From assembly GCF_900232105.1 (NCBI RefSeq), contig NZ_LT934425.1, positions 30,001 through 62,000 on the forward strand: DNA of 32,000 bases. The letters are read 5' to 3'. The first letter of the stretch is position 1. Each line of letters starts with the position of its first letter. The stretch comes from Candidatus Kuenenia stuttgartensis (GTDB lineage Bacteria > Planctomycetota > Brocadiia > Brocadiales > Brocadiaceae). Shown here one piece after another: positions 12,362 through 29,654 of this stretch. Below the pieces are notes generated by a model. The model was not told the DNA's origin. It made no database searches and saw only the letters and a program-made list of their open reading frames with translations. The position numbers were made by a program, and so were the translations under genes.

Positions 12362-12431
12362 TTTAATCGCAAAGATAAAATATTTTTGTAACAAACACAT
12401 CATTTCATACTAATAAAGGGGAATTACATCA

Positions 12432-13286
12432 ATGAGTAAGTTAATAAACAGTATAAAATCGTTTCGACGCCATGGGACGAAAATCATTTTGACACTGTCA
12501 CTTGTGGTATCTTTTATTTTACCTGCATATGCGCAGGAGAATCTGTGGAAGGAACTCAATGATAAAACTACCACACTTTTACAAGAGAAAAGATACGCCG
12601 ACGCAATAAAGTCAGGGGAAGATGCATTAAAGATTGCAAAGGAAACATTCCCGCCCGGCCATATCTCTATTGCAGCTTCAATGAACTTGCTTGGTATACT
12701 TTATAGAACCTACACCATGTATGACGAAGCCGAACCTCTTTTCAATCAGGCGCTGGATATTTATAGGGAAACAAATGGCACAGACCACCCTACGGTCGCT
12801 TACGTCCTGCAGGAATTGGCGGAAATGTTTCTCCTTCAGGACAACTATGCTAAAGCAGAGCCGCTTTACAAACAATCTCTTGGTATATATGAGAATGTCT
12901 CCGGACAGGACAATCCCGGCATAGTCAACATCCTGAACAGATTGGGAGAAATTTACCAACACCAGGAAAAATATGCCGACGCAATACTCTTTTACAAAAG
13001 GGCGTTGGCAATTGAAGTGGAAATCTTTGGCAACGACCACCCGGACGTTGCATCATCAATGAACAATCTTGCAACACTTTATTATCACAATGGAGAAAAC
13101 ACAAAAGCGGAGTCTCTTTATAAACAGGCGCTGGAAATATATGAAAATGAATACGGCGCAGACCATCCCTTAGTTGCAACCATACTGGAAAATATGGCAG
13201 TTTTTTACGAGGGAACCGGAAAAAAAGAAGCTGCAAAACAACTACATGACAGGGCAAAAAAGATTTATTCCAATTACCGGAAATGA
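12432..13286 (+). CDS. Exported tetratricopeptide-repeat (TPR_10/12-type) protein
   Basis: Signal peptide (ILTLSLVVSFILPAYAQ) followed by about six 42-aa repeats of the form Y..AEPLY..AL.I.E...G.DHP.VA..LNNLA.LY. Confidence 0.8.
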   Translation: MSKLINSIKSFRRHGTKIILTLSLVVSFILPAYAQENLWKELNDKTTTLLQEKRYADAIKSGEDALKIAKETFPPGHISIAASMNLLGILYRTYTMYDEAEPLFNQALDIYRETNGTDHPTVAYVLQELAEMFLLQDNYAKAEPLYKQSLGIYENVSGQDNPGIVNILNRLGEIYQHQEKYADAILFYKRALAIEVEIFGNDHPDVASSMNNLATLYYHNGENTKAESLYKQALEIYENEYGADHPLVATILENMAVFYEGTGKKEAAKQLHDRAKKIYSNYRK

Positions 13287-13307: not shown

Positions 13308-14239
13308 ATGGATGATGCAATGAATATCAATGCAAGCATTATTGACCAAAGGGTTGCGGGCATCATTGAAGACCATACGGATTGGCTACCGACCGGAAGC
13401 GACATTAACAAAAAGGGGTCTTCTGCATTTGTGCTACTGTGCATGTCAACATGTCTTGATATTCCCACGGAGGAGACCGCCGAATTGCTCACCGAAGGCG
13501 GAAATGATGCCGGGGTTGACGGTCTTCATGTGGGTGAGGTTGATTTCATCCATTTTAATCACGATTCGATTGTTCACATCTTCCAACGAAGCAGAAGGTG
13601 GACGCCAGCCTGACCTTGAACTGCCAAGCCATTGTGGAGGACATGAATTACATGCGCGTGCTGGTGGGCCGCGTTTCTGTTCAAGAGATTCACCGCATAT
13701 TTAATTACCACGGTGATAAACTGCTGGAGCGTAATATTCGCCGCTATCTCGGACTTCACACCAGCCGGGTAAACACCGCAATCCACGAAACGCTGTGCGA
13801 TCCTCAGAAGTCGGACAAATTCTACTTTTACAACAACGGCATTACCGTGGTCTGTGAAAAATTTGATTACAACGCATTTCAGAAATTTGACTACAAGGTG
13901 CAAATCAAGAATATGCAGGTGATTAACGGCGGCCAGACCTGCAAGACTATTCAGAAAACACTGAATAAGCGGTCGTTGTTTCCCAATATGATCGGCGAAT
14001 CCGCCTATGTGATGATTCGTATCTATCAAATTTCCTATGAGGAAGCAGTAGATAAGGAGTATGAGAAGCACTACGACTTTCAATCAGAAGCCGTCCGTGC
14101 CGGGTTCGGGAAATCCTGGCAGGAACGCGACTATAACATCATCGTCGCCGTGGCTGACAATATCCCCAACAACGTCCTCGAAGAAGATCCCAAGCTGCTC
14201 ATGTGGTACGACCAGGCGGTAACCAGGATGGGAGATTGA
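13308..14239 (+). pseudogene. AIPR (abortive-infection phage resistance) domain gene, split by a frame change and about half the usual family length
   Basis: Frame A (13308-13613) encodes an AIPR-type N-terminus: SSAFVLLCMSTCLDIPTEETAELLTEGGNDAGVDGLHVGEVD...IVHIFQ. Frame B (open from 13559, track ORF 13598-14239) carries the AIPR core: LLERNIRRYLGLHTSRVNTAIHETLCDPQKSDKFYFYNNGITVVCEKF...VQIKNMQVINGGQTCKTIQ. The two frames join sensibly only with a 1-nt correction near 13585-13586. Confidence 0.6.
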
Positions 14240-14246
14240 ACCACGA

Positions 14247-16082
14247 ATGGACAAGAATGAACACGAATTCATTTCGCTGGTTGATCTTGGCATGGCCTAT
14301 CGCAAAGCAAAGGCTGACCTTTTTTATTCTCCTAGGGCATGCAGGAAAGCTTTGTCTGCTTTAGAGTTAAGACTATCGAAGAAGCTCGTGGCACTTCAAA
14401 ATAAGCTTACTAAAGGAGAAGCACCGTCTGTTTCAAGCCAAAAGTGGACACTGGTTCCTAAAGAGATTAAATACGAAGAATTTAAAACAGAACAGATCAG
14501 TTCTGATCCACAACACCTTTGGGACTCAATCTGCAAACATGAGAACGTTAATTCGAGGAAAGTACAGGCGGAATTCCGGCTGATGGAGAAGCTGTCTATC
14601 GAATTTCATGTTTTTGCAGCACTCTGGATTAACAAAATCGGTCATAAGTTTGAAGCTAAACTAACGACCTCCGCTCGAGGAAATCGTCTCCGGCGGAACA
14701 AAAACGGCAAAATCAACACCCTTTCGCTTGGTTCAACCGTTCCTTACTTGTATGCTTACTGCAAATGGCGCGACGATGCCTTCGTTGCCATGGAGAATGC
14801 CTTGGAGCATGAAAAGTCGGTAGTCGCTATTACCGCCGATGTCACCTCTTTTTACCATAAACTCGATGTCCGCTTCATGCTCAATGATCACTTTATTAAG
14901 CGGATCGGTGTTGAGCTGGATAATGATGAAAAGAAGCTCCATTCCCTGTTCATCACTGCGCTTTATCAATGGGCAAAAAAAACTCCTCTCAAACGAGGGC
15001 TGCCCGTTGGTCTTACAGCATCTTCGGTCATTGCCAATGTGGCGTTGTTTGAACTGGACGGGCTTTTCGAGCGTGAAATTGTGCCGCTGTATTACGGACG
15101 TTATGTAGATGACATCATTCTTGTCATGGAAAACGGGGCGAATTTCAAGAGATCCGTCGAGATATGGGATTGGCTAGTTGCGCGTATGGATAAAGCGTTG
15201 AGATGGAAAGATGAAAAAGACAAAAAGGAGTTGCAATACACTCAGCCATATCTTGATGGCAGCGAAATCATCTTTGCCAACAAAAAGAATAAAACATTCC
15301 TGCTTTCAGGTGCGAGTGGTCTTTCCGTGCTGAAATCCATTCAGCATGAGGTTCAGATTCGTACCAGTGAGTGGCGCGCATTGCCCGCTCTACCTGGCAA
15401 CAGCACCCAATTGGAATCCATGCTACTGACCGCGATTCAAAGAGATGGCATCTCGGCCGATAGTCTGCGTAAAGCTGATAAAGTTTCGGTGCGGCGCGCC
15501 GGTTTTGCGCTCAAGCTGCGAGATATCGAGGCCTATGCACGAGCACTGTCCCCTGATAAATGGCAAAAACAACGTCACTCGTTTCTAACCGCCTTTATCC
15601 GCCATGTTCTGGTGCTGCCGACCTTCTTTGATTTCTACAACTACCTGTCACGCATACTGATGCTTGCGGTTAGCTGTGGCGATTTCGCCCATCTGCGCAA
15701 GATGCTGGATGCCTTGGAAAAGATATTGATGCAACTGGAAGACTGCGATATAAGTATCAAGGCGCAACCGAAGAGCAGGTCACGAATAGAGAAACCCATA
15801 TCTCTAGTATCGGAACACTTCCAAAAAAAGCTGAAGACAATCTTCTGTAAAAATCTGAAGACAATCATCTGTGAGTCCATCGAATGCGCTTATCCGTTGC
15901 GGCTGACCCGGGAATCGAAGACACTTTGGAGTACACATTTTGATGAGAATCATGATCTCTATATACCTCAGCCATTTCGAAAGATTCAGGCACGGCACCA
16001 GCGATACCTGAAGCAGGACCTGGCGCACAGTCCACTGAAAACATGTTTGTTGCAACCCGCTGCTAAGCCCCACAATAAATGA
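14247..16082 (+). CDS. Stand-alone reverse transcriptase of the Abi/UG (defence-associated) type; last 6 codons and stop are supplied by the transposon end
   Basis: RT palm motifs: VVAITADVTSFYHKLD (catalytic D codon at 14838-14840), GLPVGLTASSVIANVALFELD (14997-15047) and YGRYVDDIILV (YVDD at 15102-15113). About 300 aa of helical-looking C-terminal extension follow, with no maturase X motif, no endonuclease and no retron-like flanking non-coding DNA. Starts 7 nt after the AIPR gene stop. Transposon identity begins at 16061, inside codon GCT (16059-16061). Confidence 0.75.
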   Translation: MDKNEHEFISLVDLGMAYRKAKADLFYSPRACRKALSALELRLSKKLVALQNKLTKGEAPSVSSQKWTLVPKEIKYEEFKTEQISSDPQHLWDSICKHENVNSRKVQAEFRLMEKLSIEFHVFAALWINKIGHKFEAKLTTSARGNRLRRNKNGKINTLSLGSTVPYLYAYCKWRDDAFVAMENALEHEKSVVAITADVTSFYHKLDVRFMLNDHFIKRIGVELDNDEKKLHSLFITALYQWAKKTPLKRGLPVGLTASSVIANVALFELDGLFEREIVPLYYGRYVDDIILVMENGANFKRSVEIWDWLVARMDKALRWKDEKDKKELQYTQPYLDGSEIIFANKKNKTFLLSGASGLSVLKSIQHEVQIRTSEWRALPALPGNSTQLESMLLTAIQRDGISADSLRKADKVSVRRAGFALKLRDIEAYARALSPDKWQKQRHSFLTAFIRHVLVLPTFFDFYNYLSRILMLAVSCGDFAHLRKMLDALEKILMQLEDCDISIKAQPKSRSRIEKPISLVSEHFQKKLKTIFCKNLKTIICESIECAYPLRLTRESKTLWSTHFDENHDLYIPQPFRKIQARHQRYLKQDLAHSPLKTCLLQPAAKPHNK

Positions 16083-16098
16083 ACCTGGAATTCTCAGA

Positions 16099-16401
16099 TT
16101 AAGTGGAATTAATATATTGAGGTAAAACGGATTTTAGCAGATAGACAGCATCTGGGAAAGAGGAGTTGGAATCTACCATGACGATGTCGATGGTATTAAA
16201 GTTTTTTTTACAACGGAAACACCTGGCGAGGTTCGTATTTGGGTTGGTGGCGGAATTAAATTCAGAACAGAGAGGGCAGAGGAAGCGGAAATAGCCTTCG
16301 GAGTATTTATGAGGTATGGAGAGGACATCAGCGATGAGTCGATCGATGGGGATATCGTTTCGTAATGAGCGCAAGAGTTGAGGGGAAAAGAGACGGGCCA
16401 T
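16099..16401 (-). CDS. Transposon gene 4: small CHC2-like zinc-finger protein
   Basis: 100 aa with an AGGAGG SD. FRFLCPLCSEFNSATNPNTNLARCFRCKKNFNTIDIVM resembles the primase-type CHC2 finger (CP.H.E..PS......... .C..C...G..I.F). Its stop lies only 38 bp from the transposon end. Confidence 0.55.
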   Translation of the reverse strand: MARLFSPQLLRSLRNDIPIDRLIADVLSIPHKYSEGYFRFLCPLCSEFNSATNPNTNLARCFRCKKNFNTIDIVMVDSNSSFPDAVYLLKSVLPQYINST

Positions 16402-16412
16402 GGTAGACCTCC

Positions 16413-17204
16413 TTAAAAAGATTGAATTTCAGCAAGAGCCTGATGGAAGATATCCTGGGTAATTTTCTGTGATTGTCTGATGGAAGCGTTAATCAGGCAG
16501 GCGGTGGAAATGGCGTTGATTTGCCTTGGGATGCCGGCGGAGAACTCATGGATCAGGTCTTTGACGTCTGAGTCAAAGATTTTATCGGATGCGCCGGAAG
16601 ATTTCAGATGGAAGTCTATGTATGCAGCGGTTTGAGTTTTAGTAAGGGGATGAATGTGGTAATGTACCGAGATGCGTTGTGCGAAGTCGGCATGGATGTC
16701 TCTTTTGAGGATATATTTGAGGTGTTCCTGTCCCGAGAGGATGATTTTGAGATGAGTGGAAGAATCAAGCGGAGAGCTGACAAGGAGTCTGAGGTCTGTG
16801 ATGGCGTCGGTTTTCAGGAGATGAGCCTCGTCGATAACGATAATGGGAGTGAGATTTGAGCGCAAGGATTTATCCATAATTTGGAGGAAGAGCCGGTCTT
16901 TGGTGTGTTTTGGTATTTCACCGAGCTGGGAGACGATTAAGGAGAGAAGGCTGGATGATTTTAGGTGGGTAAAATGGAGGTAGATGGGGAGAAACAGGTT
17001 TTGGGGGATTTGTGAGAGGAAGAGTTTGAGGAGTGTGGATTTTCCGACTCCCGTCTGTCCGTAGAGGACGGCGATAGAGCCTGAGTGTAAGAGGTATTGG
17101 AGTCGTGCAAGCCCCTGGGTAAAGCGTTCGTCTTTCATGATAAGGCTGGTGTTGATTCTTTCAGAGAACGGCTGAGTAGTCATGGAAAAATGAGAAGTAA
17201 ACAT
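16413..17204 (-). CDS. Transposon gene 3: AAA+ ATPase (ExeA/TniB/TnsC-like transposition ATPase)
   Basis: 263 aa. The N-terminal FSMTTQPFSERINTSLIMKDERFTQGLARLQYLL is ExeA-like. Walker A is LYGQTGVGKST and Walker B is PIIVIDEAHLL. It starts 3 nt after the transposase stop. Confidence 0.8.
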   Translation of the reverse strand: MFTSHFSMTTQPFSERINTSLIMKDERFTQGLARLQYLLHSGSIAVLYGQTGVGKSTLLKLFLSQIPQNLFLPIYLHFTHLKSSSLLSLIVSQLGEIPKHTKDRLFLQIMDKSLRSNLTPIIVIDEAHLLKTDAITDLRLLVSSPLDSSTHLKIILSGQEHLKYILKRDIHADFAQRISVHYHIHPLTKTQTAAYIDFHLKSSGASDKIFDSDVKDLIHEFSAGIPRQINAISTACLINASIRQSQKITQDIFHQALAEIQSF

Positions 17205-17206
17205 GG

Positions 17207-18767
17207 TTAAGAGACCTCCTTTTTCGAGTAAGCGATTTGTAATTCACGAATGATATAGGGTAAGGTTTTCACGGAGGCATTTTGGAATGCCTCCGTGAGC
17301 AATGATTCGTTGAGAGCGGGGATACGGTTGTAGCATTTTTTAAGCGATTCGAGTTCATGAGAGCTGAAGGCGGAGAGAGAGCCTTTGTGTCCCATGAGGA
17401 GTGCGAGTTTCTGGACGAATGCCATGAATGGCCAGGGTCGTTCGGAGATGATTTGGTGGTAATCAATGCCTTTGGCCTGAGCCTGGAGAATGGATTTGTG
17501 TTTCTGAGTGATAGGGTCGAGGTAATTATGTTTTGGTTTTGAAGGTGAGGCGGCTGGAGTTTCAGCGCCCTGGTCGCGCAGGTAGAGATTTCCCGAGCCG
17601 AGGTATTCACCGTTTGCGGAATAGATCAAGACCTTTTTGAGATCGCCGTATGGGTCGTAACGGACTTCTACTTTATCGCCTCTGAGTTTGGGGTCAACAC
17701 GGTAAAAGCGGTTATCAATGCGGACATCGGCAAAGGTTCTGTCAACGGTTCTGGGGATGCGTTTCATGAAGAAGGCAAGAGCGGCGTCCATATCGACGTG
17801 TCGGATGACGGTAAGCCCCTCGTCGTAGCGTTGTTTTGGAGATTGATTGGTTTCGGAGTGGATTCTTGCGTGATAGACAACGGCAAGGTAAGCGGAGAAG
17901 GCCTGGTTAATGGCATCAAGGGTGATAATGTCGCCGGAGCGGACTTCCGACTCGAACTGTGTCTGGCTGGTGCCGAAGAAACGTTCGACCAGTCCGCCGG
18001 GAGCAGGGTCGCGTGGTGGTCTGTGGATGAGTTTAATGCCGAGGTTGTAACAGGCAGAGCGCAGGGCGTCAGAGTGGTAGACCTTGGCATTGTCGAGGTA
18101 GAGTTCTTTGGGCGAGCCGTGGATAGTCCAGGCCCTGATGAGAGAATCGATAAGGATATCGAGGGTTTGTTTGAGATAATACCGTCCTTCGACCACATAA
18201 CGGCTGTAGCAGTCGATAAAGAGACAGAGGTTTGTGGGAAGCGCCTCGCCGTCAACGAGCACGAAAGGGCCTTCCTGGAAGTCGCCAATCCAGAGGTCGT
18301 GGGTATGCTCACGGCTAAGAGCGTATACGCACCTTTTGCTGTGAGACGCCGAGTTTGAGCCGGGTCGCCCCTGCGAGTCTGAGATGGCGGTAGAGGGTGG
18401 ATTTGGGGATCGTTTTCCCATAGTATTTCTCAAGAAAGCGGTTGAGGCAATCGTCGCTGCGGCGTGGTTGTTCTTTTTTGAGTTCAACGGCTTTGTCGAT
18501 AATTTCAGGAGAAAACCTTCTGGATGCGCCACGGTCGCTCCTCGCCTTTCTTGCAAGAGATTGAAATCCATCTTTGCGGTAGCGGTTGAGTTTTCTCCTG
18601 AGGGTAGAGATAGTGGGTCTTTTCCGCTTTCCGTTGGGGAATACGACCTCCTGAAGGCAGAGTTTTTTCAGAAAAAGGTTGGTCTGCTCCTTCTCAATCT
18701 CACCGAAGATGACAGGATGCAGAAGATTGCACCAGAATAAAGCCCATTTTTCGTCTTTCGATTTCAT
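17207..18767 (-). CDS. Transposon gene 2: DDE transposase (Mu A/TnsB/TniA-like), encoded in two overlapping frames requiring a +1 shift
   Basis: Frame 1 (18767-18315) holds the HTH N-terminal domains (ISTLRRKLNRYRKDGFQSLARKARSDRG...TIPKSTLYRHLRLAG). Frame 2 (to 17207) holds the DDE core (HDLWIGDF, LCLFIDCYSRYVVG, ELYLDNAKVYHS, GGLVERFF). It also holds a Mu-transposase-type C-terminal domain (VRIDNRFYRVDPKLRGDKVEVRYDPYGDLKKVLIY). This copy has no internal stop other than the frame junction. Confidence 0.8.
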
Positions 18768-18805
18768 AATTCACCTCCTTTTTTAAGTGTGGAGGTGATT
18801 GTAAC

Positions 18806-19444
18806 TCAAGACCAGCCGCTTTTTGTTGCCAGTTCGGGGAAAAATGAATGCCCAAAAATTCGGTGATATTCCGGCTCGGCGCTGAACAATTGAATCGATT
18901 GATCGAGGGAGGTTTTTCGTTGTTTGCTTTTATACTTTCCGTGGTAAATGGGAAACATTTGGCGAAAAACCGGAGAGTTGGGGTCGGCCTGCCTGATGAG
19001 GTCAAAGGCGTTGCGGAGTGTGTATTTCAGTGAGCCAAAGAAACGCAGCCACCTCCAAACGGTTGACCAGGCAAGCATGCGGTTGTCTATTTCCTGTGTT
19101 CGGGTAGTATATCCGATGGCAGAGGAGACACTCCGGTAGGTTTCTGTATCATCTTTGACATAAGCCTGACTGAAGGAGAGACAGTGATCCTTTACGTACC
19201 GCTTGTAAGGGAGCGCATACTCAGGATAGGAAGTAAACGTCTTCTTGCACAAGGAACATTTCCAACGTCCCAGGAAAGATTCTATCGTATGAACAAGGGA
19301 GTCGATAATAACGTGAAACAACCGATATCTGCATTCATGAAGGGTGAAATTGACATGGGTACTCTTGCACTTTGGACAAAAGCATGGCTTCTGTTTTGTC
19401 GCAATAAGCTTTTCATGCTTGTGGATTTTTTCTATAATATTCAC
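18806..19444 (-). CDS. Transposon gene 1: zinc-ribbon protein of unknown function
   Basis: 212 aa, GTG start 6 nt after AGGAGG. Two CxxC pairs (CFCPKCKSTHVNFTLHEC...RWKCSLCKKTFTSYPEYALPYKRY). The pattern resembles transposase-adjacent DUF6431-type proteins from memory, so this is a low-confidence family call. Confidence 0.5.
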   Translation of the reverse strand: MNIIEKIHKHEKLIATKQKPCFCPKCKSTHVNFTLHECRYRLFHVIIDSLVHTIESFLGRWKCSLCKKTFTSYPEYALPYKRYVKDHCLSFSQAYVKDDTETYRSVSSAIGYTTRTQEIDNRMLAWSTVWRWLRFFGSLKYTLRNAFDLIRQADPNSPVFRQMFPIYHGKYKSKQRKTSLDQSIQLFSAEPEYHRIFGHSFFPELATKSGWS

Positions 19445-19850
19445 GCACTGCCTCCTTTGTATAGAGGGGAAATGGGCAGGAGGATGAAGTTTCCCAACGT
19501 TCGGTCCTCCTGCCCTGAGTTTTTTATGTTCCGGAAAAATCTTACAAAACTTGTCCTCGTGAAAACGGGGAACTGGGAAGTAAACCGCCGTTAGGAAGTT
19601 TGGAAGTGGTTTTAACCTCTTCCAAACTATTTAATGAGGCTTTACTCCGCCTTACGGACGGAACTTCTTTCTAACGGGGTAAACGATGTATTTTTCTTAA
19701 CGTGAACAAAAAATCAAGTGAAATACTTACGCAGGATAAAAAAAAGGCGGGGTAGCTGGGTAAGATTTTTCAAATCATTTGCTGGGTATTAGACTCAAAT
19801 ATTCTGAGACTAATTGGGCATTTTTGGAGCATTTATTCTAAGACGTAGCA

Positions 19851-20783
19851 TCTGGTGATGTCTCTGATGTTGTTCCTTCGGCAGGCTCAGGACAGGCTCT
19901 TGAGTTTGTTCAGTGATTTCGTGCTTATACCCTTATACTTGCCCTTGAAATCGTATCCGAGAAACCTGAAACCTCTTTCGAAGTTGGTGAGCTTGGTTTT
20001 ATCCTCGCTCAGCTTCATTCCAAGTTTCCCTGCAATGATTTCTTTGACATAGCTGAGGGCGGCTGGGAGTTCATCTTTTGTTTTAGTCATGACAACGAAA
20101 TCATCGGCGTATCGGACAAACTTATATCCAGCCTTTTCAAGTTCCTTGTCGATGATGTCACCGATAAGGTTTGCAAGCAAAGGGGAAATGACGCCTCCTT
20201 GCGGAGTGCCTTTGTTTGTCTCGTGCACGATGCCGTCCTCCATGACCCCTGCTTTGAGCATGTTCTCAATACTGTTCAAAACCCATCCATCAGCGATTTT
20301 CTCACGTAAGGAGTCCATAATAAGCTTATGGGGTATGGTGTCATAGAATGCCATTATATCGGCATCAAGGACGCTGGTATACCCTTCCTGCTTATACTGT
20401 TCAAGCCGTTTGATAGCATCGTGACAGCATCTGTCAGGGCGAAATCCAAAGCTGTTATCTGAGAATCCTTTCTCAAATATTGGCTCTATGATTTGCCTGA
20501 ACGCCTGCTGTACAATCCTGTCCTTAACAATGGGAATGCCAAGAGGTCTCTTGTCATGCCTGCCTTTGGGGATGTATACCCGCAGGACAGGCGCAGGGTT
20601 GTATATGGCAGTCTTGAGTTCCTGATGGATACTCATGATATTCACATCAAGATTGGACTCAAATTGCTTAATACTTACCCTGTCAAGACCAGCTTTGCCT
20701 TTATTCTTCTTTACGTGTTTGAAAGCAGCATAAAGGTTTTTCAGACTAAACACCTTGTCTCTTAATGAATGATACTTAAGCAT
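19851..20783 (-). pseudogene. Group II intron RT (IEP) fragment lacking the maturase domain
   Basis: Track ORF 19887-20783 is identical in protein to 28017-28913 (RT domains 0-7, YADD). It has the same in-frame TGA (19889-19887). The reading frame is then cut by the transposon end at 19850/19851. Confidence 0.9.
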
Positions 20784-21154
20784 CTCTCGATATATTCCTT
20801 TCGATTGATTACGGATAATAGACTTGTCAATCGTGTTTCCTGGGTACGGATTCTCCCAAACATAGGCAAAAACAAGAGAGGCTCTTGTTACTGCTTACCT
20901 ACGCAAAAGAGTTTCTTTTCTCATTGAACGTATTCAATCTACCACTTTCATCAATTCCACTACGGTTATGCCCCTTTCATTTCCGATTCACACCGGAAAC
21001 TATTATGAGCAATGCTGACGACTTCAAAGATAGACTTGTGAGAGAAGCTTGTCTATCACCATCTCATACAGCTCGGACTTCGGAATTTCCTTATACCTTG
21101 CTGTTAGGGAATTTTGCCCAAGACGTAAGTCCTCCCCCGGTCATATGGATTACC
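19851..21154 (-). mobile_element. Internal fragment (1,304 bp) of a group II intron, truncated at both ends by transposon ends
   Basis: Reverse complement matches 27646-28949 of the fuller copy. I noticed two substitutions: copy 1 21123 a versus copy 2 27677 c (G vs D in the antisense-ORF translation), and copy 1 20254 t versus copy 2 28546 g (silent K codon in the IEP). Identity stops exactly at the transposon termini on both sides. Confidence 0.9.
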
Positions 21155-21560
21155 TGCTACGTCTTAGAATAAATGCTCCAAAAATGCCCAATTAGTCTCA
21201 GAATATTTGAGTCTAATACCCAGCAAATGATTTGAAAAATCTTACCCAGCTACCCCGCCTTTTTTTTATCCTGCGTAAGTATTTCACTTGATTTTTTGTT
21301 CACGTTAAGAAAAATACATCGTTTACCCCGTTAGAAAGAAGTTCCGTCCGTAAGGCGGAGTAAAGCCTCATTAAATAGTTTGGAAGGGGTTAAAACCACT
21401 TCCAAACTTCCTAACGGCGGTTTACTTCCCAGTTCCCCGTTTTCACGAGGACAAGTTTTGTAAGATTTTTCCGGAACATAAAAAACTCAGGGCAGGAGGA
21501 CCGAACGTTGGGAAACTTCATCCTCCTGCCCATTTCCCCCCTATACAAAGGAGGCAGTGC

Positions 21561-22199
21561 GTGAATATTATAGAAAAAATCCACAAGCATGAAAAGCTTA
21601 TTGCGACAAAACAGAAGCCATGCTTTTGTCCAAAGTGCAAGAGTACCCATGTCAATTTCACCCTTCATGAATGCAGATATCGGTTGTTTCACGTTATTAT
21701 CGACTCCCTTGTTCATACGATAGAATCTTTCCTGGGACGTTGGAAATGTTCCTTGTGCAAGAAGACGTTTACTTCCTATCCTGAGTATGCGCTCCCTTAC
21801 AAGCGGTACGTAAAGGATCACTGTCTCTCCTTCAGTCAGGCTTATGTCAAAGATGATACAGAAACCTACCGGAGTGTCTCCTCTGCCATCGGATATACTA
21901 CCCGAACACAGGAAATAGACAACCGCATGCTTGCCTGGTCAACCGTTTGGAGGTGGCTGCGTTTCTTTGGCTCACTGAAATACACACTCCGCAACGCCTT
22001 TGACCTCATCAGGCAGGCCGACCCCAACTCTCCGGTTTTTCGCCAAATGTTTCCCATTTACCACGGAAAGTATAAAAGCAAACAACGAAAAACCTCCCTC
22101 GATCAATCGATTCAATTGTTCAGCGCCGAGCCGGAATATCACCGAATTTTTGGGCATTCATTTTTCCCCGAACTGGCAACAAAAAGCGGCTGGTCTTGA
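21561..22199 (+). CDS. Transposon gene 1 (copy B): zinc-ribbon protein
   Basis: Protein identical to 18806-19444. Confidence 0.5.
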   Translation: MNIIEKIHKHEKLIATKQKPCFCPKCKSTHVNFTLHECRYRLFHVIIDSLVHTIESFLGRWKCSLCKKTFTSYPEYALPYKRYVKDHCLSFSQAYVKDDTETYRSVSSAIGYTTRTQEIDNRMLAWSTVWRWLRFFGSLKYTLRNAFDLIRQADPNSPVFRQMFPIYHGKYKSKQRKTSLDQSIQLFSAEPEYHRIFGHSFFPELATKSGWS

Positions 22200-22237
22200 G
22201 TTACAATCACCTCCACACTTAAAAAAGGAGGTGAATT

Positions 22238-23798
22238 ATGAAATCGAAAGACGAAAAATGGGCTTTATTCTGGTGCAATCTTCTGCATCCTGTCATCTTC
22301 GGTGAGATTGAGAAGGAGCAGACCAACCTTTTTCTGAAAAAACTCTGCCTTCAGGAGGTCGTATTCCCCAACGGAAAGCGGAAAAGACCCACTATCTCTA
22401 CCCTCAGGAGAAAACTCAACCGCTACCGCAAAGATGGATTTCAATCTCTTGCAAGAAAGGCGAGGAGCGACCGTGGCGCATCCAGAAGGTTTTCTCCTGA
22501 AATTATCGACAAAGCCGTTGAACTCAAAAAAGAACAACCACGCCGCAGCGACGATTGCCTCAACCGCTTTCTTGAGAAATACTATGGGAAAACGATCCCC
22601 AAATCCACCCTCTACCGCCATCTCAGACTCGCAGGGGCGACCCGGCTCAAACTCGGCGTCTCACAGCAAAAGGTGCGTATACGCTCTTAGCCGTGAGCAT
22701 ACCCACGACCTCTGGATTGGCGACTTCCAGGAAGGCCCTTTCGTGCTCGTTGACGGCGAGGCGCTTCCCACAAACCTCTGTCTCTTTATCGACTGCTACA
22801 GCCGTTATGTGGTCGAAGGACGGTATTATCTCAAACAAACCCTCGATATCCTTATCGATTCTCTCATCAGGGCCTGGACTATCCACGGCTCGCCCAAAGA
22901 ACTCTACCTCGACAATGCCAAGGTCTACCACTCTGACGCCCTGCGCTCTGCCTGTTACAACCTCGGCATTAAACTCATCCACAGACCACCACGCGACCCT
23001 GCTCCCGGCGGACTGGTCGAACGTTTCTTCGGCACCAGCCAGACATAGTTCGAGTCGGAAGTCCGCTCCGGCGACATTATCACCCTTGATGCCATTAACC
23101 AGGCCTTCTCCGCTTACCTTGCCGTTGTCTATCACGCAAGAATCCACTCCGAAACCAATCAATCTCCAAAACAACGCTACGACGAGGGGCTTACCGTCAT
23201 CCGACACGTCGATATGGACGCCGCTCTTGCCTTCTTCATGAAACGCATCCCCAGAACCGTTGACAGAACCTTTGCCGATGTCCGCATTGATAACCGCTTT
23301 TACCGTGTTGACCCCAAACTCAGAGGCGATAAAGTAGAAGTCCGTTACGACCCATACGGCGATCTCAAAAAGGTCTTGATCTATTCCGCAAACGGTGAAT
23401 ACCTCGGCTCGGGAAATCTCTACCTGCGCGACCAGGGCGCTGAAACTCCAGCCGCCTCACCTTCAAAACCAAAACATAATTACCTCGACCTTATCACTCA
23501 GAAACACAAATCCATTCTCCAGGCTCAGGCCAAAGGCATTGATTACCACCAAATCATCTCCGAACGACCCTGGCCATTCATGGCATTCGTCCAGAAACTC
23601 GCACTCCTCATGGGACACAAAGGCTCTCTCTCCGCCTTCAGCTCTCATGAACTCGAATCGCTTAAAAAATGCTACAACCGTATCCCCGCTCTCAACGAAT
23701 CATTGCTCACGGAGGCATTCCAAAATGCCTCCGTGAAAACCTTACCCTATATCATTCGTGAATTACAAATCGCTTACTCGAAAAAGGAGGTCTCTTAA
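22238..23798 (+). pseudogene. Transposon gene 2 (copy B): DDE transposase with the shared +1 frame break plus a copy-specific nonsense codon
   Basis: Same two-frame organisation as copy A (frame break within 22650-22690). In addition, TAG at 23046-23048 replaces the CAG of copy A (...FFGTSQT*FESEV), splitting the DDE core from the C-terminal domain. Confidence 0.85.
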
Positions 23799-23800
23799 CC

Positions 23801-24592
23801 ATGTTTACTTCTCATTTTTCCATGACTACTCAGCCGTTCTCTGAAAGAATCAACACCAGCCTTATCATGAAAGACGAACGCTTTACCCAGGGGCTTGCAC
23901 GACTCCAATACCTCTTACACTCAGGCTCTATCGCCGTCCTCTACGGACAGACGGGAGTCGGAAAATCCACACTCCTCAAACTCTTCCTCTCACAAATCCC
24001 CCAAAACCTGTTTCTCCCCATCTACCTCCATTTTACCCACCTAAAATCATCCAGCCTTCTCTCCTTAATCGTCTCCCAGCTCGGTGAAATACCAAAACAC
24101 ACCAAAGACCGGCTCTTCCTCCAAATTATGGATAAATCCTTGCGCTCAAATCTCACTCCCATTATCGTTATCGACGAGGCTCATCTCCTGAAAACCGACG
24201 CCATCACAGACCTCAGACTCCTTGTCAGCTCTCCGCTTGATTCTTCCACTCATCTCAAAATCATCCTCTCGGGACAGGAACACCTCAAATATATCCTCAA
24301 AAGAGACATCCATGCCGACTTCGCACAACGCATCTCGGTACATTACCACATTCATCCCCTTACTAAAACTCAAACCGCTGCATACATAGACTTCCATCTG
24401 AAATCTTCCGGCGCATCCGATAAAATCTTTGACTCAGACGTCAAAGACCTGATCCATGAGTTCTCCGCCGGCATCCCAAGGCAAATCAACGCCATTTCCA
24501 CCGCCTGCCTGATTAACGCTTCCATCAGACAATCACAGAAAATTACCCAGGATATCTTCCATCAGGCTCTTGCTGAAATTCAATCTTTTTAA
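23801..24592 (+). CDS. Transposon gene 3 (copy B): AAA+ transposition ATPase
   Basis: Protein identical to 16413-17204. Confidence 0.8.
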   Translation: MFTSHFSMTTQPFSERINTSLIMKDERFTQGLARLQYLLHSGSIAVLYGQTGVGKSTLLKLFLSQIPQNLFLPIYLHFTHLKSSSLLSLIVSQLGEIPKHTKDRLFLQIMDKSLRSNLTPIIVIDEAHLLKTDAITDLRLLVSSPLDSSTHLKIILSGQEHLKYILKRDIHADFAQRISVHYHIHPLTKTQTAAYIDFHLKSSGASDKIFDSDVKDLIHEFSAGIPRQINAISTACLINASIRQSQKITQDIFHQALAEIQSF

Positions 24593-24603
24593 GGAGGTCT
24601 ACC

Positions 24604-24906
24604 ATGGCCCGTCTCTTTTCCCCTCAACTCTTGCGCTCATTACGAAACGATATCCCCATCGATCGACTCATCGCTGATGTCCTCTCCATACCTCATAAAT
24701 ACTCCGAAGGCTATTTCCGCTTCCTCTGCCCTCTCTGTTCTGAATTTAATTCCGCCACCAACCCAAATACGAACCTCGCCAGGTGTTTCCGTTGTAAAAA
24801 AAACTTTAATACCATCGACATCGTCATGGTAGATTCCAACTCCTCTTTCCCAGATGCTGTCTATCTGCTAAAATCCGTTTTACCTCAATATATTAATTCC
24901 ACTTAA
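24604..24906 (+). CDS. Transposon gene 4 (copy B): CHC2-like zinc-finger protein
   Basis: Protein identical to 16099-16401. Confidence 0.55.
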   Translation: MARLFSPQLLRSLRNDIPIDRLIADVLSIPHKYSEGYFRFLCPLCSEFNSATNPNTNLARCFRCKKNFNTIDIVMVDSNSSFPDAVYLLKSVLPQYINST

Positions 24907-24922
24907 TCTGAGAATTCCAGGT

Positions 24923-25018
24923 TCATTTATTGTGGGGCTTAGCAGTTAAGCCTTTCCCGCTCATCTCTGCCTTGATTTTCGGTTGTCTTTTGCTGTATTT
25001 TTTTGCTATATTCTTCAT
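24923..25018 (-). CDS. Small Lys-rich ORF cut by the transposon end; candidate (truncated) RiPP precursor leader
   Basis: My own translation; the ORF is below the track size cutoff. ATG at 25018, with AGGAG 13 nt upstream. It reads MKNIAKKYSKRQPKIKAEMSGKGL up to the junction at 24945, then runs into transposon DNA (TAKPHNK*). It lies 79 nt downstream of the PqqD-like gene on the same strand. Confidence 0.25.
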   Translation of the reverse strand: MKNIAKKYSKRQPKIKAEMSGKGLTAKPHNK

Positions 25019-25097
25019 CGAAATGGTGAATCTCCTTTCAGGTGTTTTTTGTTATCAATATACCGCCGAATACCTTGGAAATCCTACCATTTCAATC

Positions 25098-25325
25098 CTA
25101 TTCCTGCAACAAGGCTTTGCCTTGTTTGCAGGATTTAGGTTTAATTATTTCGCTTATCTCTCCAACCGTAAGACCGCTACTGAACATTTGCCAGATCCGC
25201 AGTCCTGTTTCATTTAAGGTGAAGTACATCTTCGTGCCCAGATGGAGAAGGACGGCCTCTTTGCCCTCTAATTCAGTAATAACAACATCAGGGTCAGGCG
25301 TTACCCTATAATTTAACTCCAGCAT
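25098..25325 (-). CDS. PqqD-family peptide-binding protein (RiPP recognition element), C-terminally short
   Basis: 75 aa with a strong SD (AAAGGAGG). DPDVVITELEGKEAVLLHLGTKMYFTLNETGLRIWQMFSSGLTVGEISEII matches the PqqD/RRE pattern. The last ~14 codons are encoded by a hairpin (25101-25130) and do not look like the usual PqqD C-terminal helix. Confidence 0.7.
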   Translation of the reverse strand: MLELNYRVTPDPDVVITELEGKEAVLLHLGTKMYFTLNETGLRIWQMFSSGLTVGEISEIIKPKSCKQGKALLQE

Positions 25326-25470
25326 CTTTTATCAACCTCCTTTTCAGTATTTCTCGTAATTATTCAATATGAAGTGAAAGACCTCCCATCCCTTCCTATC
25401 TGCGAAGGAGGGGAGATAAGAAGTCCCCCCTTCAAGAGGGGATTTAGGAGTGTGTTTAATAATCTTGATA

Positions 25471-26502
25471 TTATGCAAATATCACTTCCGTCCAAACCAT
25501 GCGAGACCAGGGGTTTCCCGAAAACTCTTTCAGCCAGTCTACCTTCTTAAAATAATTCAAACAGAACCAACAGGGAAAATAATCTGAATCTCTAAATTTA
25601 CCATTGCTGTAGTGTTCAAGCTTCTCTTTTTGAAATTTCCCACTAGCCTCAACCAAACTTACATAAGCCTCAGAAAAACTCATCTCATTCAAATTGCCTA
25701 TTATATCATCGTTTCCCACATCTTCTCCATGTCCCGATAAATTACAGCACATGGTGACATTGCCTCGCCAGTCGATGTTAATCTCTTCCATTTTAAGCGA
25801 AGCGCAAGGAAAGAGTTCGGTCGTATAGTATCCCGATGCCATAACAATAGGAATGGAAAATGTTTTCTGGAGCTGACAGATGATAGTTTCTGTTTGCCTT
25901 CTTTCTATCGGCGAAATGTCCATATTTTCTGATACGATTCGGGGAGTTGAAATAAGATGGCCAAGCCTGAGTCCCCGGCCTCCCAGTTTTGCTGCAAGCA
26001 TGGCTATTTCATTTAATTCACCCCGACTGTGGGACGTAATGACCGTATTGAAGGTGAAGGGAATATCTTTTACCACGCAAATGCTTACTGCCTGCATCAC
26101 CCGGCGATACGAACCCTTTCCACGAAGCATGTCATGTGTTTCCTCCCTTGCACCTTCTAAACTAAAGGTAATTCCAGTAAGACTATTAAGATGCGGGAGC
26201 AACTTCTCATAAATTCGGGTAAAATTCCAACCATTTGTTACAAAGCCAAAGTTATATCCAGCTTCTGATACCATCGTGAGCATCTCGGTAAATCCGGGAT
26301 GCAACGTTGGCTCTCCGCCAGTAAAGGAGATGTAATCAAAGCCATGCCCCCTGGCATTCCGGAGAATTCTTTCTAAGATTTCTATTTTCAGGTCTCCGTC
26401 ACCACTATGCCTTCCATCAAGGCAATGATGGCAACTTAAATTACAGCGATTGGTAAGTTCTATCAATATTCCCGGCATTGTAGTATTACTGTATAAAAGC
26501 AT
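25471..26502 (-). CDS. Radical SAM enzyme with SPASM/twitch-like Cys-rich C-terminal domain (peptide maturase type)
   Basis: 343 aa. CxxxCxxC cluster ELTNRCNLSCHHCLDG (Cys codons between 26445 and 26422). SAM-binding FTGGEPTLHP. C-terminal Cys groups are FPCAS, GNVTMCCNLSGHG and YFPCWFCLNYF. Confidence 0.8.
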   Translation of the reverse strand: MLLYSNTTMPGILIELTNRCNLSCHHCLDGRHSGDGDLKIEILERILRNARGHGFDYISFTGGEPTLHPGFTEMLTMVSEAGYNFGFVTNGWNFTRIYEKLLPHLNSLTGITFSLEGAREETHDMLRGKGSYRRVMQAVSICVVKDIPFTFNTVITSHSRGELNEIAMLAAKLGGRGLRLGHLISTPRIVSENMDISPIERRQTETIICQLQKTFSIPIVMASGYYTTELFPCASLKMEEINIDWRGNVTMCCNLSGHGEDVGNDDIIGNLNEMSFSEAYVSLVEASGKFQKEKLEHYSNGKFRDSDYFPCWFCLNYFKKVDWLKEFSGNPWSRMVWTEVIFA

Positions 26503-26943
26503 CTCTTCAGCGTAAATATTACACGATTCCCAACGGTTTCAGGTTTACAACCGTTCGGCTGGGCTCACGACGAAGCCTGAACCTATGAGTTTATGCGTAT
26601 AATGGAGCTATGTACAGCAATAAAACCCCAACTCTTAACCACGGAACACTAGGAATACACGGAAGCTTGCTATAATAAAATCAGTCAGGGTGCATTTTAG
26701 ATTTTTTGTAGAAAAGCTTATTATTTATGCAGAATAGGTAGCTCGGAGCAGACCCATCAATAAACTAGATGGGGAAAAACAAATGTCTAATATTGAACTA
26801 GTCCTAAAACAAGCGTAATTTTTTAATCTGAGAGAGTTAAAGTAGGTTGAAAAGCCTGAATTTACTGGTTAAGATAGTGATATGTAAAAATTCCGATAAC
26901 CAGAAAAAGGGGCATTTCAGACCTGTACTGAGCTTGTCGAAGC

Positions 26944-27326
26944 ATGAGTAAAATAGCAGCAAGAAAATATAACAAGATATTGAGAAGAAAGAAACGGAAA
27001 ATAGAGAAACGGTTAAAGAGAAAGCAATGGGGAGATCAGAAGCATCCGATGTTCACGGCAAAGAACATTCATTACGAGATAGCCGCGAATAGCCAGGCAA
27101 TTGCCTGTGGTGGTATAGGCGTAATCCATCAAATGGCAATAAGAAGTGGATTGGTAAAAGAGATAGACGAGAATCTTGAGTTACTCAAAAGGCATATACC
27201 GTATCATGAATCGGATCATATATTGAATATAGCGTACAATGTGCTTTCAGGGAATGTGCGGTTAGAAGACATAGAGTTGCATCGGCAAGACAGCGGCTAT
27301 TTGGATGCGTTGGGTGCAGAGCGGAT
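26944..27326 (+). pseudogene. IS1380-family-like transposase, N-terminal fragment (~127 codons)
   Basis: ACGGIGVIHQMAIRSGLVKEIDENLELLKRHIPYHESDHILNIAYNVLSGNVRLEDIELHRQDSGYLDALGAER fits the N-terminal pattern I associate with IS1380-type transposases (...L.GG.RLEDIE.LR.D......LG.ER-IP.P.T). Family-like sequence stops at ~27326. The remaining track-ORF residues (CALKYGIPEWLKIPPLRA*) look like read-through into other DNA. No DDE domain is found anywhere downstream. Confidence 0.55.
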
Positions 27327-29360
27327 GTGTGCCTTGAAGTATGGAATACCTGAGTGGTTGAAAATACCACCTCTGCGAGCCTAATCCTCGTAGAGAAGTT
27401 TGTGCCTATGCGCACACAATGGAGCAATCCGTATGCGTAGAAAGATAGCATATACCCGTGAGGGGTATGACGGAGTTACGAGGTACAGACGACCTTTTGG
27501 GGTGTATGAGTGTGGCGTGTTATTCCGTGCCAACTGCCATTTCTCAGCGAAGCACTGACAATGTCCTTTGTTGGAGATGGATAAACAGATTAAGTAAAAC
27601 CATCTCTGGTTAATGCGTTTGAACATACATCACGAAGGGAAAAGGGGTAATCCATATGACCGGGGGAGGACTTACGCCTTGGGCAAAATTCCCTAACAGC
27701 AAGGTATAAGGAAATTCCGAAGTCCGAGCTGTATGAGATGGTGATAGACAAGCTTCTCTCACAAGTCTATCTTTGAAGTCGTCAGCATTGCTCATAATAG
27801 TTTCCGGTGTGAATCGGAAATGAAAGGGGCATAACCGTAGTGGAATTGATGAAAGTGGTAGATTGAATACGTTCAATGAGAAAAGAAACTCTTTTGCGTA
27901 GGTAAGCAGTAACAAGAGCCTCTCTTGTTTTTGCCTATGTTTGGGAGAATCCGTACCCAGGAAACACGATTGACAAGTCTATTATCCGTAATCAATCGAA
28001 AGGAATATATCGAGAGATGCTTAAGTATCATTCATTAAGAGACAAGGTGTTTAGTCTGAAAAACCTTTATGCTGCTTTCAAACACGTAAAGAAGAATAAA
28101 GGCAAAGCTGGTCTTGACAGGGTAAGTATTAAGCAATTTGAGTCCAATCTTGATGTGAATATCATGAGTATCCATCAGGAACTCAAGACTGCCATATACA
28201 ACCCTGCGCCTGTCCTGCGGGTATACATCCCCAAAGGCAGGCATGACAAGAGACCTCTTGGCATTCCCATTGTTAAGGACAGGATTGTACAGCAGGCGTT
28301 CAGGCAAATCATAGAGCCAATATTTGAGAAAGGATTCTCAGATAACAGCTTTGGATTTCGCCCTGACAGATGCTGTCACGATGCTATCAAACGGCTTGAA
28401 CAGTATAAGCAGGAAGGGTATACCAGCGTCCTTGATGCCGATATAATGGCATTCTATGACACCATACCCCATAAGCTTATTATGGACTCCTTACGTGAGA
28501 AAATTGCTGATGGATGGGTTTTGAACAGTATTGAGAACATGCTCAAGGCAGGGGTCATGGAGGACGGCATCGTGCACGAGACAAACAAAGGCACTCCGCA
28601 AGGAGGCGTCATTTCCCCTTTGCTTGCAAACCTTATCGGTGACATCATCGACAAGGAACTTGAAAAGGCTGGATATAAGTTTGTCCGATACGCCGATGAT
28701 TTCGTTGTCATGACTAAAACAAAAGATGAACTCCCAGCCGCCCTCAGCTATGTCAAAGAAATCATTGCAGGGAAACTTGGAATGAAGCTGAGCGAGGATA
28801 AAACCAAGCTCACCAACTTCGAAAGAGGTTTCAGGTTTCTCGGATACGATTTCAAGGGCAAGTATAAGGGTATAAGCACGAAATCACTGAACAAACTCAA
28901 GAGCCTGTCCTGAGCCTGCCGAAGGAACAACATCAGAGACATCACCAGACGTACACAGGGCGTCAATCTGCAAGCCATTGTTGATACATTAAACCCTGTA
29001 ATTCGTGGGCATGTCAACTATTTTCGGCTGGGCAATGTACAAAAGGTATATCGCTCATTAGACTGTTGGGTACGCATGAGACTGAGATGTTTCAAGTTCT
29101 CAAGAAAATGGAGAACAGACAACAAGCGTTTCCCTGTTCACCGATTCTTTAAAATGGGGTTACTCTCATTCGAAAGAGAATTTCTTAAGGCGTGTGCTAA
29201 AGCATGATGTTTGACTTTTCTCTGTTATAGAGCAACACTTCGGGGTCGCTGACTACGAGAAAGACGTATGGTTTAAAAAGGATGCTTTGTCACGTTGTCC
29301 AAAGTATCTGGCGACGAGTGGGGGTTGGAGGCTAATGGCCTCCAGCCTACCAGCTATAAC
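27327..29360 (+). mobile_element. Group II intron, fuller copy (ribozyme boundaries approximate)
   Basis: The firm part is 27646-28949 (matches the inverted fragment) plus the IEP ORF to 29207. The 5' end is proposed at GTGTG (27327-27331), exactly where the IS1380-like reading frame loses family resemblance and ~690 nt before the IEP start. The 3' end is unresolved, between 29208 and ~29388. A strong hairpin at 29322-29348 followed by AC is a possible domain VI / 3' end. I could not confidently fold domain V. Confidence 0.6.
28017..29207 (+). pseudogene. Group II intron-encoded RT/maturase (no endonuclease domain) with an in-frame TGA
   Basis: RT domains: RVYIPKGRHDKRPLGIPIVKDRIVQQA, VLDADIMAFYDTIPH, GTPQGGVISPLLANL and VRYADDFVVM. 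The maturase X domain lies in the same frame after TGA 28911-28913: IRDITRRTQGVNLQAIVDTLNPVIRGHVNYFRLGN. The stop is at 29205-29207. Confidence 0.85.
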
Positions 29361-29388
29361 GTTTCATTAAAATATCTACATTGATACC

Positions 29389-29469
29389 GTCATTGCGAGC
29401 GACAGCGAAACAATCTTGAGTTTTTTTGGAAACAAGAGATTGCTTCGTCGCTCCACTCCTCGCAATGAC
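29389..29469. repeat. REP/MITE-like 81-bp imperfect palindrome (cattgcgag...ctcgcaatg type)
   Basis: gtcattgcgag (29389-29399) is the exact reverse complement of ctcgcaatgac (29459-29469). The inner arms cgacagcgaaacaatcttg / caagagattgcttcgtcg are imperfectly complementary. It accounts for the spurious track ORF 29426-29665. Confidence 0.7.
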
Positions 29470-29654
29470 ATTTTTTTACGTACACATTTTAACGAAACGA
29501 TGTACTAAATATGAGTATGACGCCCAAAACAGGTTTTGTAATAGTTCAACACCTTCCTCTAAACTAATAAGCGCTAGATTGTTTTTAATATTTTTTATAT
29601 GGAGTCCAATATCGAAAATAGGCAGTCGGCAGTCAAATTCTAAATTTTACCCTT

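Follow-up and report, generated by a model that had tools for sequence, protein, structure and literature searches.

An IS1380-derived reading frame beside the probable remnant of a peptide-maturation cassette in Candidatus Kuenenia stuttgartiensis MBR1

Layout of the radical SAM–PqqD locus

The window analysed here is a 32,000-nucleotide stretch of the chromosome of Candidatus Kuenenia stuttgartiensis MBR1 (NZ_LT934425.1, positions 30,001 to 62,000), and all positions below are in window numbering. On its reverse strand it carries a gene for a radical S-adenosylmethionine (rSAM) enzyme, followed by a gene for a stand-alone PqqD-like protein of the type that serves as recognition element (RRE) for RiPPs (ribosomally made peptides with post-translational modifications), and by a 31-aa open reading frame (ORF) that runs into a transposon. 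An earlier note, made from the letters of the window, had taken this ORF for the leader of a RiPP precursor whose Cys-rich core had been cut off by the transposon. The features concerned, from the rSAM side inward, are as follows.

26503–26801, minus strand: native intergenic DNA 5′ of the rSAM gene; homology to insertion sequence (IS)-free or other Kuenenia strains stops at about 26801
25471–26502, minus strand: rSAM gene, 343 aa, intact; the sole undamaged cassette gene within the window
25140–25325, minus strand: PqqD/RRE gene, native part; codons 1–62 of 94, with Q62K
24945–25139, minus strand: first 195 nt of an IS1380-family element, with terminal inverted repeat (TIR), hairpin, ribosome-binding site and transposase ATG at 25018
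24923–25018, minus strand: 31-aa ORF, read as chimeric; about 24–25 IS1380 transposase codons plus AKPHNK* (asterisk, stop codon) from the transposon right end
21155–24944, plus strand: Mu-like transposon copy 2, 3790 bp; its right end cuts the IS fragment
19851–21154, no strand assigned: internal fragment of a group II intron, 1304 bp, trapped between two transposon left ends
16061–19850, minus strand: Mu-like transposon copy 1, inverted; its right end cuts the reverse transcriptase (RT) gene 14247–16082

The native DNA, which we refer to as the cassette remnant, spans 25140–26801 (1.66 kb). On the rSAM side, window 26400–26801 is 100% identical to 10728–11129 of a comparison locus (L090), and the match to another (L004) breaks off at 26586, where L004 has an IS110 element. 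Past about 26801 the sequence passes into another IS1380-like gene, which a group II intron interrupts. Between the rSAM and PqqD genes we also noticed a terminator-like GC-rich hairpin with a T-rich run (25424–25442, minus strand); a small indel beside it sets strain CSTR1 apart from the window.

The 343-aa rSAM protein belongs to the Radical SAM superfamily (Pfam PF04055, E = 1.1e-21), and its CxxxCxxC motif (C20/C24/C27) is kept in 17 of 18 aligned homologues, the eighteenth being truncated N-terminally. The enzyme had been credited with extra C-terminal Cys clusters. It is intact, but only five C-terminal cysteines are conserved in the 18-sequence alignment (C233-x13-G-x4-C252-C253 and C311-xx-C314). 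The full seven-Cys SPASM motif (CX9-15GX4C ... CX2CX5CX3C ... C) is absent, and the SPASM model PF13186 matches only marginally (23.2 bits; cut-off 21.5; profile positions 5–45 of 67). Judged by these residues, the C-terminal domain is of a twitch-like or partial SPASM type. The folds closest to an AlphaFold model of the protein (mean predicted local distance difference test score, pLDDT, 81.6) are BlsE, SkfB, SuiB, PqqE and anSME, with template-modelling (TM) scores of about 0.6, and the alignments from a PDB sequence search cover chiefly the rSAM core. Neither NCBIfam nor the PDB sequence search returned a characterised close relative; the best NCBIfam matches, all weak, are mycofactocin and tungsten-cofactor maturases and ScmF (top score 81 bits against a cut-off of 265). 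The protein is 99–100% identical to Candidatus Kuenenia stuttgartiensis proteins and identical to the rSAM of strains in which the cassette described below is intact; the damage in MBR1 is therefore recent.

The PqqD-like ORF (75 aa, 25098–25325, minus strand) is a truncated family member. It matches PF05402 at E = 1.7e-8 over profile positions 1–39 of 67 only, whereas an intact orthologue fills positions 1–67 (E = 2e-16). Intact orthologues at two loci (L004 and L001) are 94 aa long; they match the window protein through ...GEISEII and then continue as QNEFDVLPEKARESVLKLIHELIREKLVKVVDG, reading ...EISEIIQNEFDVLPEKARESVLKLIHELIREKLVKVVDG, so that window and intact proteins part exactly at the IS junction. 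The last native codon is codon 62 (Q62K), and codons 63–75, PKSCKQGKALLQE*, are supplied by the IS repeat. The same 75-aa PqqD–IS fusion protein was found in other assemblies. Proteins of the PqqD/RRE family are winged helices with three helices; going by general knowledge of RRE structure, the lost C-terminal third would hold the third helix, and the truncated protein would be nonfunctional. An atypical, hairpin-encoded C-terminus had been reported for this ORF. The C-terminus is aberrant and the hairpin (25103–25132) is real; the hairpin is, however, the end of an IS.

The 31-aa ORF, MKNIAKKYSKRQPKIKAEMSGKGLT (24923–25018, minus strand), lies 79 nt 3′ of the PqqD stop codon and is preceded by AGGAG, as had been claimed, but it does not appear to be a native gene. 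Window 24945–25141 is 100% identical to two IS1380 sites in CSTR1 (L002, CP049055; 7812–8007 and 16959–17155). The IS proper, 24945–25139, is identical over all of its 195 nt to the start of a multicopy 1716-bp IS1380-family element. This element has 16-nt TIRs, its 445-aa DDE transposase reaches 347.6 bits with NF033539 (transpos_IS1380; cut-off 180), and its complete copies are bounded by 5-bp target-site duplications (TSDs), TGTTA and TTCAA. In the window the TIR, CCTAAATCCTGCAAAC, occupies 25124–25139 and the hairpin is subterminal. The ORF matches residues 1–25 of the transposase (N-terminus MKNIAKKYSKRQPKIKAEMSGKGLTVHAGLL...), and the ORF and the 122 nt upstream agree with the 5′ end of the element at 100% identity. 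Ribosome-binding site, Lys-rich start and hairpin are all IS sequence, and the IS segment encodes both the aberrant PqqD tail and the ORF through ...GKGLT. Continuity with an element that passes NF033539, together with its TIRs and TSDs, places 24945–25139 among the IS1380-family insertion sequences, with which the window shares a left end that is 100% identical; unlike a complete copy it retains the first 195 nt only, the remainder having been replaced by the Mu-like transposon. The TTCAA target reads TTAAA in MBR1. Because a perfect 195-nt match to an IS is beyond chance, the 31-aa ORF is not the native precursor; on sequence grounds it is the start of an IS1380 transposase with a tail from a transposon end, and the Lys-rich start that had looked leader-like is the N-terminus of that transposase.

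The tail is contributed by the Mu-like transposon, of which the window holds two inverted copies of 3790 bp (16061–19850 and 21155–24944). Both ends carry terminal repeats, TGCTAnGnCnnAnAATAAATG, and the genes between them encode a DUF6431 protein, a transposase with HTH_32 and rve/Mu-transpos_C domains, an AAA_22 ATPase and a CHC2 zinc-ribbon protein. The right end, when translated inward in one frame, encodes AKPHNK*. The 31-aa ORF and the 611-aa RT ORF have this tail in common because both read the transposon right end, and in this respect the earlier account was accurate: the junction at 24944/24945 and the shared tail are both real. The two copies differ by 4 single-nucleotide polymorphisms (SNPs) and are therefore separate copies, not an assembly duplicate.

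The intact cassette and its precursor family

In other genomes the rSAM and PqqD genes belong to a six-gene unit. At the intact Kuenenia locus the order is a 58-aa ORF, an HPr-kinase-like gene (328 aa), the rSAM gene, PqqD (94 aa), a Transglut_core3 gene (162 aa) and an NTP_transf_5 gene (428 aa). The HPr-kinase-like protein matches Pfam Hpr_kinase_C and has a weak precomputed match to ScmC. The Transglut_core3 protein is a lasso-type B2 cysteine protease (NF033537, 47.2 bits against a cut-off of 33), and the best matches of the cassette PqqD are lasso B1 models. The B2 gene is missing from the window. In the intact cassette its start overlaps the PqqD stop, so that no gene could fit where the 31-aa ORF lies. 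Syntenic loci had been named as the place to look for a conserved small ORF; nothing of the kind is conserved after PqqD, B2 occupying the place, and the precursor gene lies upstream of the kinase-like gene.

Four other Kuenenia assemblies (GCA_027493735, GCA_015075145, GCA_048500235 and GCA_900696675) show the full cassette order or its downstream portion, and in some of them an IS110 element occupies one intergenic gap. The same six-gene unit is found in Scalindua and Nitrospira, where the flanking genes differ. Among species-representative genomes a scan found at least 80 loci, which belong to Planctomycetota, Nitrospirota, Desulfobacterota, Ignavibacteria, Dehalococcoidia (Chloroflexota), Acidobacteriota and others; most cassette genes are recognisable across these loci, and the rSAM is invariably present. 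We did not detect Asn_synthase among the called genes within 6–10 kb at four loci from three lineages (L001, L004, L102 and L103). No description of the cassette was found in a literature search of incomplete coverage, beyond which earlier work is possible, and the cassette thus appears to be undescribed.

Large secreted beta-helix/choice-of-anchor-Q proteins are often encoded just 5′ of the precursor gene in anammox bacteria, in Nitrospira and at other loci (for example L004, 4463–6388 and upstream, and L001, L010–L012, L017, L018 and L039). Such genes, whose products may be targets or export partners of the cassette, are missing at many of the survey loci.

A precursor ORF of 52–66 aa precedes the kinase-like gene wherever it was detected, at about 25 of the 80 loci. 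The sequences align as ...F(V/I)EPKLTKHGDATKIT-x followed by a core GFFGxF(S/T)P, with P29, P36, K37, L38, G42 and T48 invariant in the alignment. Numbered so that the conserved Thr is −2, the leader carries Phe −17, Pro −14 and Leu −12, a spacing that we take to be the lasso leader motif. The precursors share with lasso leaders the conserved Thr at −2 and a YxxPxL-type motif, with P, L, G and T unchanged throughout the alignment. Thr at −2 is invariant in lasso leaders (PMC10885120). A profile search retrieved 1034 clusters at 90% identity; among the 120 clusters listed none contains a domain known to Pfam, and the source names shown all read "hypothetical" or "uncharacterized". Phe at −17 is present in all 121 retrieved members, for which the modal core is 8 residues long (GFFGxFxP). 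Most predicted cores lack the Asp/Glu at position 7–9 needed for a lasso macrolactam: 109 of the 121 contain no Asp or Glu, and the other 12 contain Asp or Glu. Cys is essentially lacking from the alignment and from the listed cores, with one exception, TNGFFGTFTPCL. The precursors therefore have neither the Cys core of sactipeptides and ranthipeptides nor the Cys-containing core that had been proposed as a search target in relatives of the window locus.

In gene content the cassette is closest to parts of three known systems. With kinase-type lasso clusters that have a split B1/B2 (paeninodin, pseudomycoidin) it shares a PqqD-like RRE, a transglutaminase-like B2 (NF033537), an HPr-kinase homologue and NTP_transf_5, as well as the aromatic(−17)/P(−14)/L(−12)/T(−2) leader spacing. 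It differs in that its annotated neighbourhoods are without an Asn-synthetase-like cyclase and hold a twitch/partial-SPASM rSAM instead; moreover, with a core of about 8 residues that usually lacks Asp/Glu, neither a macrolactam nor threading is possible. SynChlorMet (ScmC, HprK-like; ScmD, PqqD-like; ScmE and ScmF, rSAM/SPASM) presents the same trio of protein types and, like the cassette, is known from bioinformatics only. The cassette, however, has one rSAM rather than two and adds B2, NTP_transf_5 and an identifiable precursor, and its proteins score well below the SynChlorMet cut-offs (rSAM 71 bits on ScmF and 64 bits, against 400; ScmC 24.5 against 125; ScmD 32.9 against 100). Like the rSAM/SPASM–RRE RiPP systems (sactipeptides, ranthipeptides, streptide, PQQ), the cassette combines an auxiliary-cluster rSAM with a PqqD-type RRE, and the closest folds include SkfB, SuiB, PqqE, CteB and anSME. 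In contrast to those systems, it has no Glu-Tyr or Lys-Trp motif, and its core, being without Cys, can form no thioether; the rSAM has only 5 auxiliary cysteines, and the RRE is a free-standing polypeptide whose partner is a lasso-type protease.

Origin of the remnant and competing readings

Taken together, the window very probably holds a remnant of this six-gene peptide-maturation cassette, broken by ISs and transposons, with the true precursor gene located elsewhere. The view that the rSAM and stand-alone PqqD genes belong to a RiPP-type system of no assigned class is supported by the conserved cassette. In MBR1 the precursor (SOH06357.1) and the kinase-like gene (SOH06356.1) lie on the same chromosome, about 3800 protein accessions from the PqqD stub (SOH02577.1), and an identical B2 protein is also encoded there; only PqqD is destroyed, and the other cassette genes are scattered. 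The pathway is most likely dead in MBR1 because its RRE is without the C-terminal third and the operon is dispersed. The locus had been described as an inactivated RiPP locus, which holds, except that the cause would be PqqD truncation and scattering of the operon rather than loss of a precursor core.

The course of events was probably as follows. An IS1380-family element entered the PqqD gene after codon 62, at the TTCAA site; the 3.8-kb Mu-like transposon next came to be placed at IS position 195; and the rest of the cassette would then have been carried off when some of the many identical transposon and IS copies recombined with one another. Where the cassette is intact, we give roughly even odds that it represents an undescribed RiPP class, making short Phe-rich peptides by B1/B2 leader handling, with a twitch rSAM in place of the cyclase and with kinase/nucleotidyltransferase tailoring. 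In such a pathway the PqqD RRE would bind the lasso-type leader (F−17, P−14, L−12, T−2) and the rSAM would modify the Phe-rich core GFFGxF(S/T)P at its invariant Phe residues, probably by cross-linking or epimerising them. The kinase-like and nucleotidyltransferase proteins would decorate Ser/Thr, like their homologues in kinase-type lasso clusters, and B2 would remove the leader, cutting after T-x.

Several points weigh against this account. The rSAM falls far short of every NCBIfam equivalog cut-off, and the chemistry suggested for the rSAM, kinase-like and nucleotidyltransferase proteins is drawn from family resemblance. Some activity may remain in trans, as the rSAM gene is whole and the rest of the genes are still in the genome. 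The PqqD gene of CSTR1 has the IS at this very site, but turned the other way and with a flanking repeat that differs by one base (TTCAA versus TTAAA), which may reflect either a single insertion that was later inverted or two separate insertions. The order of insertion events is deduced, not reconstructed, and among the four transposon flanks in the window we found no TSD pair, whether each copy or the composite was considered. It follows from the unpaired flanks that the present arrangement arose by recombination among copies, and simple insertion and composite transposition were dropped in favour of recombination for this reason. We also rejected the idea that the flank in the RT gene and the flank on the rSAM side were once contiguous: no TSD connects them, and the right flank consists of IS DNA. 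Recombination among copies agrees with the 11 reversals that separate CSTR1 from MBR1, in which transposase genes flank the blocks (PMC7709395).

There is virtually no chance that the 31-aa ORF is, after all, the leader of the cassette's own precursor with a Cys-rich core removed by the transposon. Its strand, ribosome-binding site, Lys-rich start and truncation at the transposon end would all fit a severed leader, but the same ORF and the 122 nt upstream are identical to the 5′ end of IS1380 and to its transposase N-terminus, and in syntenic loci B2 takes this place and a conserved precursor of another sequence, free of Cys, lies 5′ of the kinase gene. An assembly artefact could in principle account for the inverted transposon–intron–transposon structure and the junction at 24944/24945, since a near-perfect 3.8-kb inverted repeat around a repeated 1.3-kb loop resembles a fold-back chimera. 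We regard this as very improbable: the copies differ at 4 and 3 SNP positions, the 75-aa PqqD–IS fusion is present in other assemblies, MBR1 is a closed long-read genome (PMC5854607), and transposase-flanked rearrangements are documented for MBR1 (PMC7709395). The IS identity of 24945–25139 is, moreover, independent of the junction.

The remaining readings concern what the cassette makes. A genuine lasso-peptide cluster, with its cyclase encoded elsewhere or unrecognised, would explain the leader spacing, a B2 that passes the lasso model, a PqqD whose best matches are lasso B1 and the presence of HPr-kinase-like and NTP_transf_5 genes as in kinase-type lasso clusters. It is nonetheless improbable, given that an Asn-synthase-like gene is lacking from four annotated neighbourhoods in three lineages, that flanking genes vary by lineage, that most predicted cores are short and without the acidic residue of a macrolactam, and that an rSAM is invariably there instead. 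A small chance, no better than unlikely, goes to the rSAM and PqqD acting as a maturase for a cofactor or a protein, as in the PQQ, mycofactocin and anSME systems, perhaps on the neighbouring secreted beta-helix proteins. The top NCBIfam matches to mycofactocin/tungsten-cofactor maturases and ScmF, weak as they are, and the frequent beta-helix or choice-of-anchor proteins upstream point in that direction. All those matches lie far under their cut-offs, however, beta-helix genes are missing from many loci, and across phyla the rSAM is accompanied by a small ORF with conserved leader and core and by a dedicated leader protease.

For the window, the remnant reading is a corrective result, in which a tempting severed precursor reads as the start of an IS transposase and the IS damage itself is ordinary; the locus is one that the intense transposon activity known from Kuenenia genomes has recently broken. 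Followed back to its intact form, the remnant leads to a compact, phylogenetically wide cassette that seems to join lasso-style leader processing to radical-SAM chemistry without the lasso fold. If the proposed RiPP pathway is true, the lasso B1/B2 module has been reused outside lasso peptides, and the cassette would offer a small, tractable substrate for discovering new rSAM chemistry.

Other observations on the mobile elements

The transposon transposase is split over two frames in every copy seen, one encoding the HTH part (150 aa) and the other the rve/Mu-transpos_C part. The ORF for the catalytic part is, in copy 2, broken further into ORFs of 204 and 194 aa; of the four SNPs that distinguish the copies, the one at window 17959 (G versus A) falls about where the 204-aa ORF ends. 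The junctions in the window adjoin the IS1380 fragment, a group II intron fragment (twice) and the RT gene, and in CSTR1 the same transposon is placed between two IS1380 pieces; such positions beside mobile and defence genes suggest that the transposon prefers these targets. In the PqqD-borne IS1380 of CSTR1 (L002, CP049055) the transposon lies between two direct repeats of 315 bp, at 12184–12498 and 16287–16601, which duplicate IS positions 554–868. Repeats of this length are far beyond a TSD and imply that two IS copies, each with a transposon in it, recombined.

A second copy of the 1304-bp intron fragment lies at 27646–28949, inside a full group II intron (about 27390–29290) that splits the IS1380-like transposase gene 26944–27384. 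The intron RT/maturase (TIGR04416, 339.6 bits) has an in-frame TGA at 28911–28913, between its RT and maturase parts, in both window copies. Rfam returned no match, group II introns included, in the whole window at the gathering threshold or in 27300–29500 at E ≤ 0.1.

At the far end of the transposon pair, the 611-aa RT (SOH02560.1; 14247–16082, plus strand) is of the UG5 RT–nitrilase defence type (PADLOC PDLC03780, E = 7e-149, positions 17–555 of 907), and its nitrilase part has been lost to the transposon right end at the 16060/16061 junction. Longer forms of 760 and 872 aa and fragments of 230 and 267 aa occur in other assemblies and elsewhere in MBR1, where the 230-aa member of the protein cluster is KSMBR1_3654. 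Just 5′ of the RT gene, at 13308–14239, lie fragmentary AIPR/AbiU-like ORFs.

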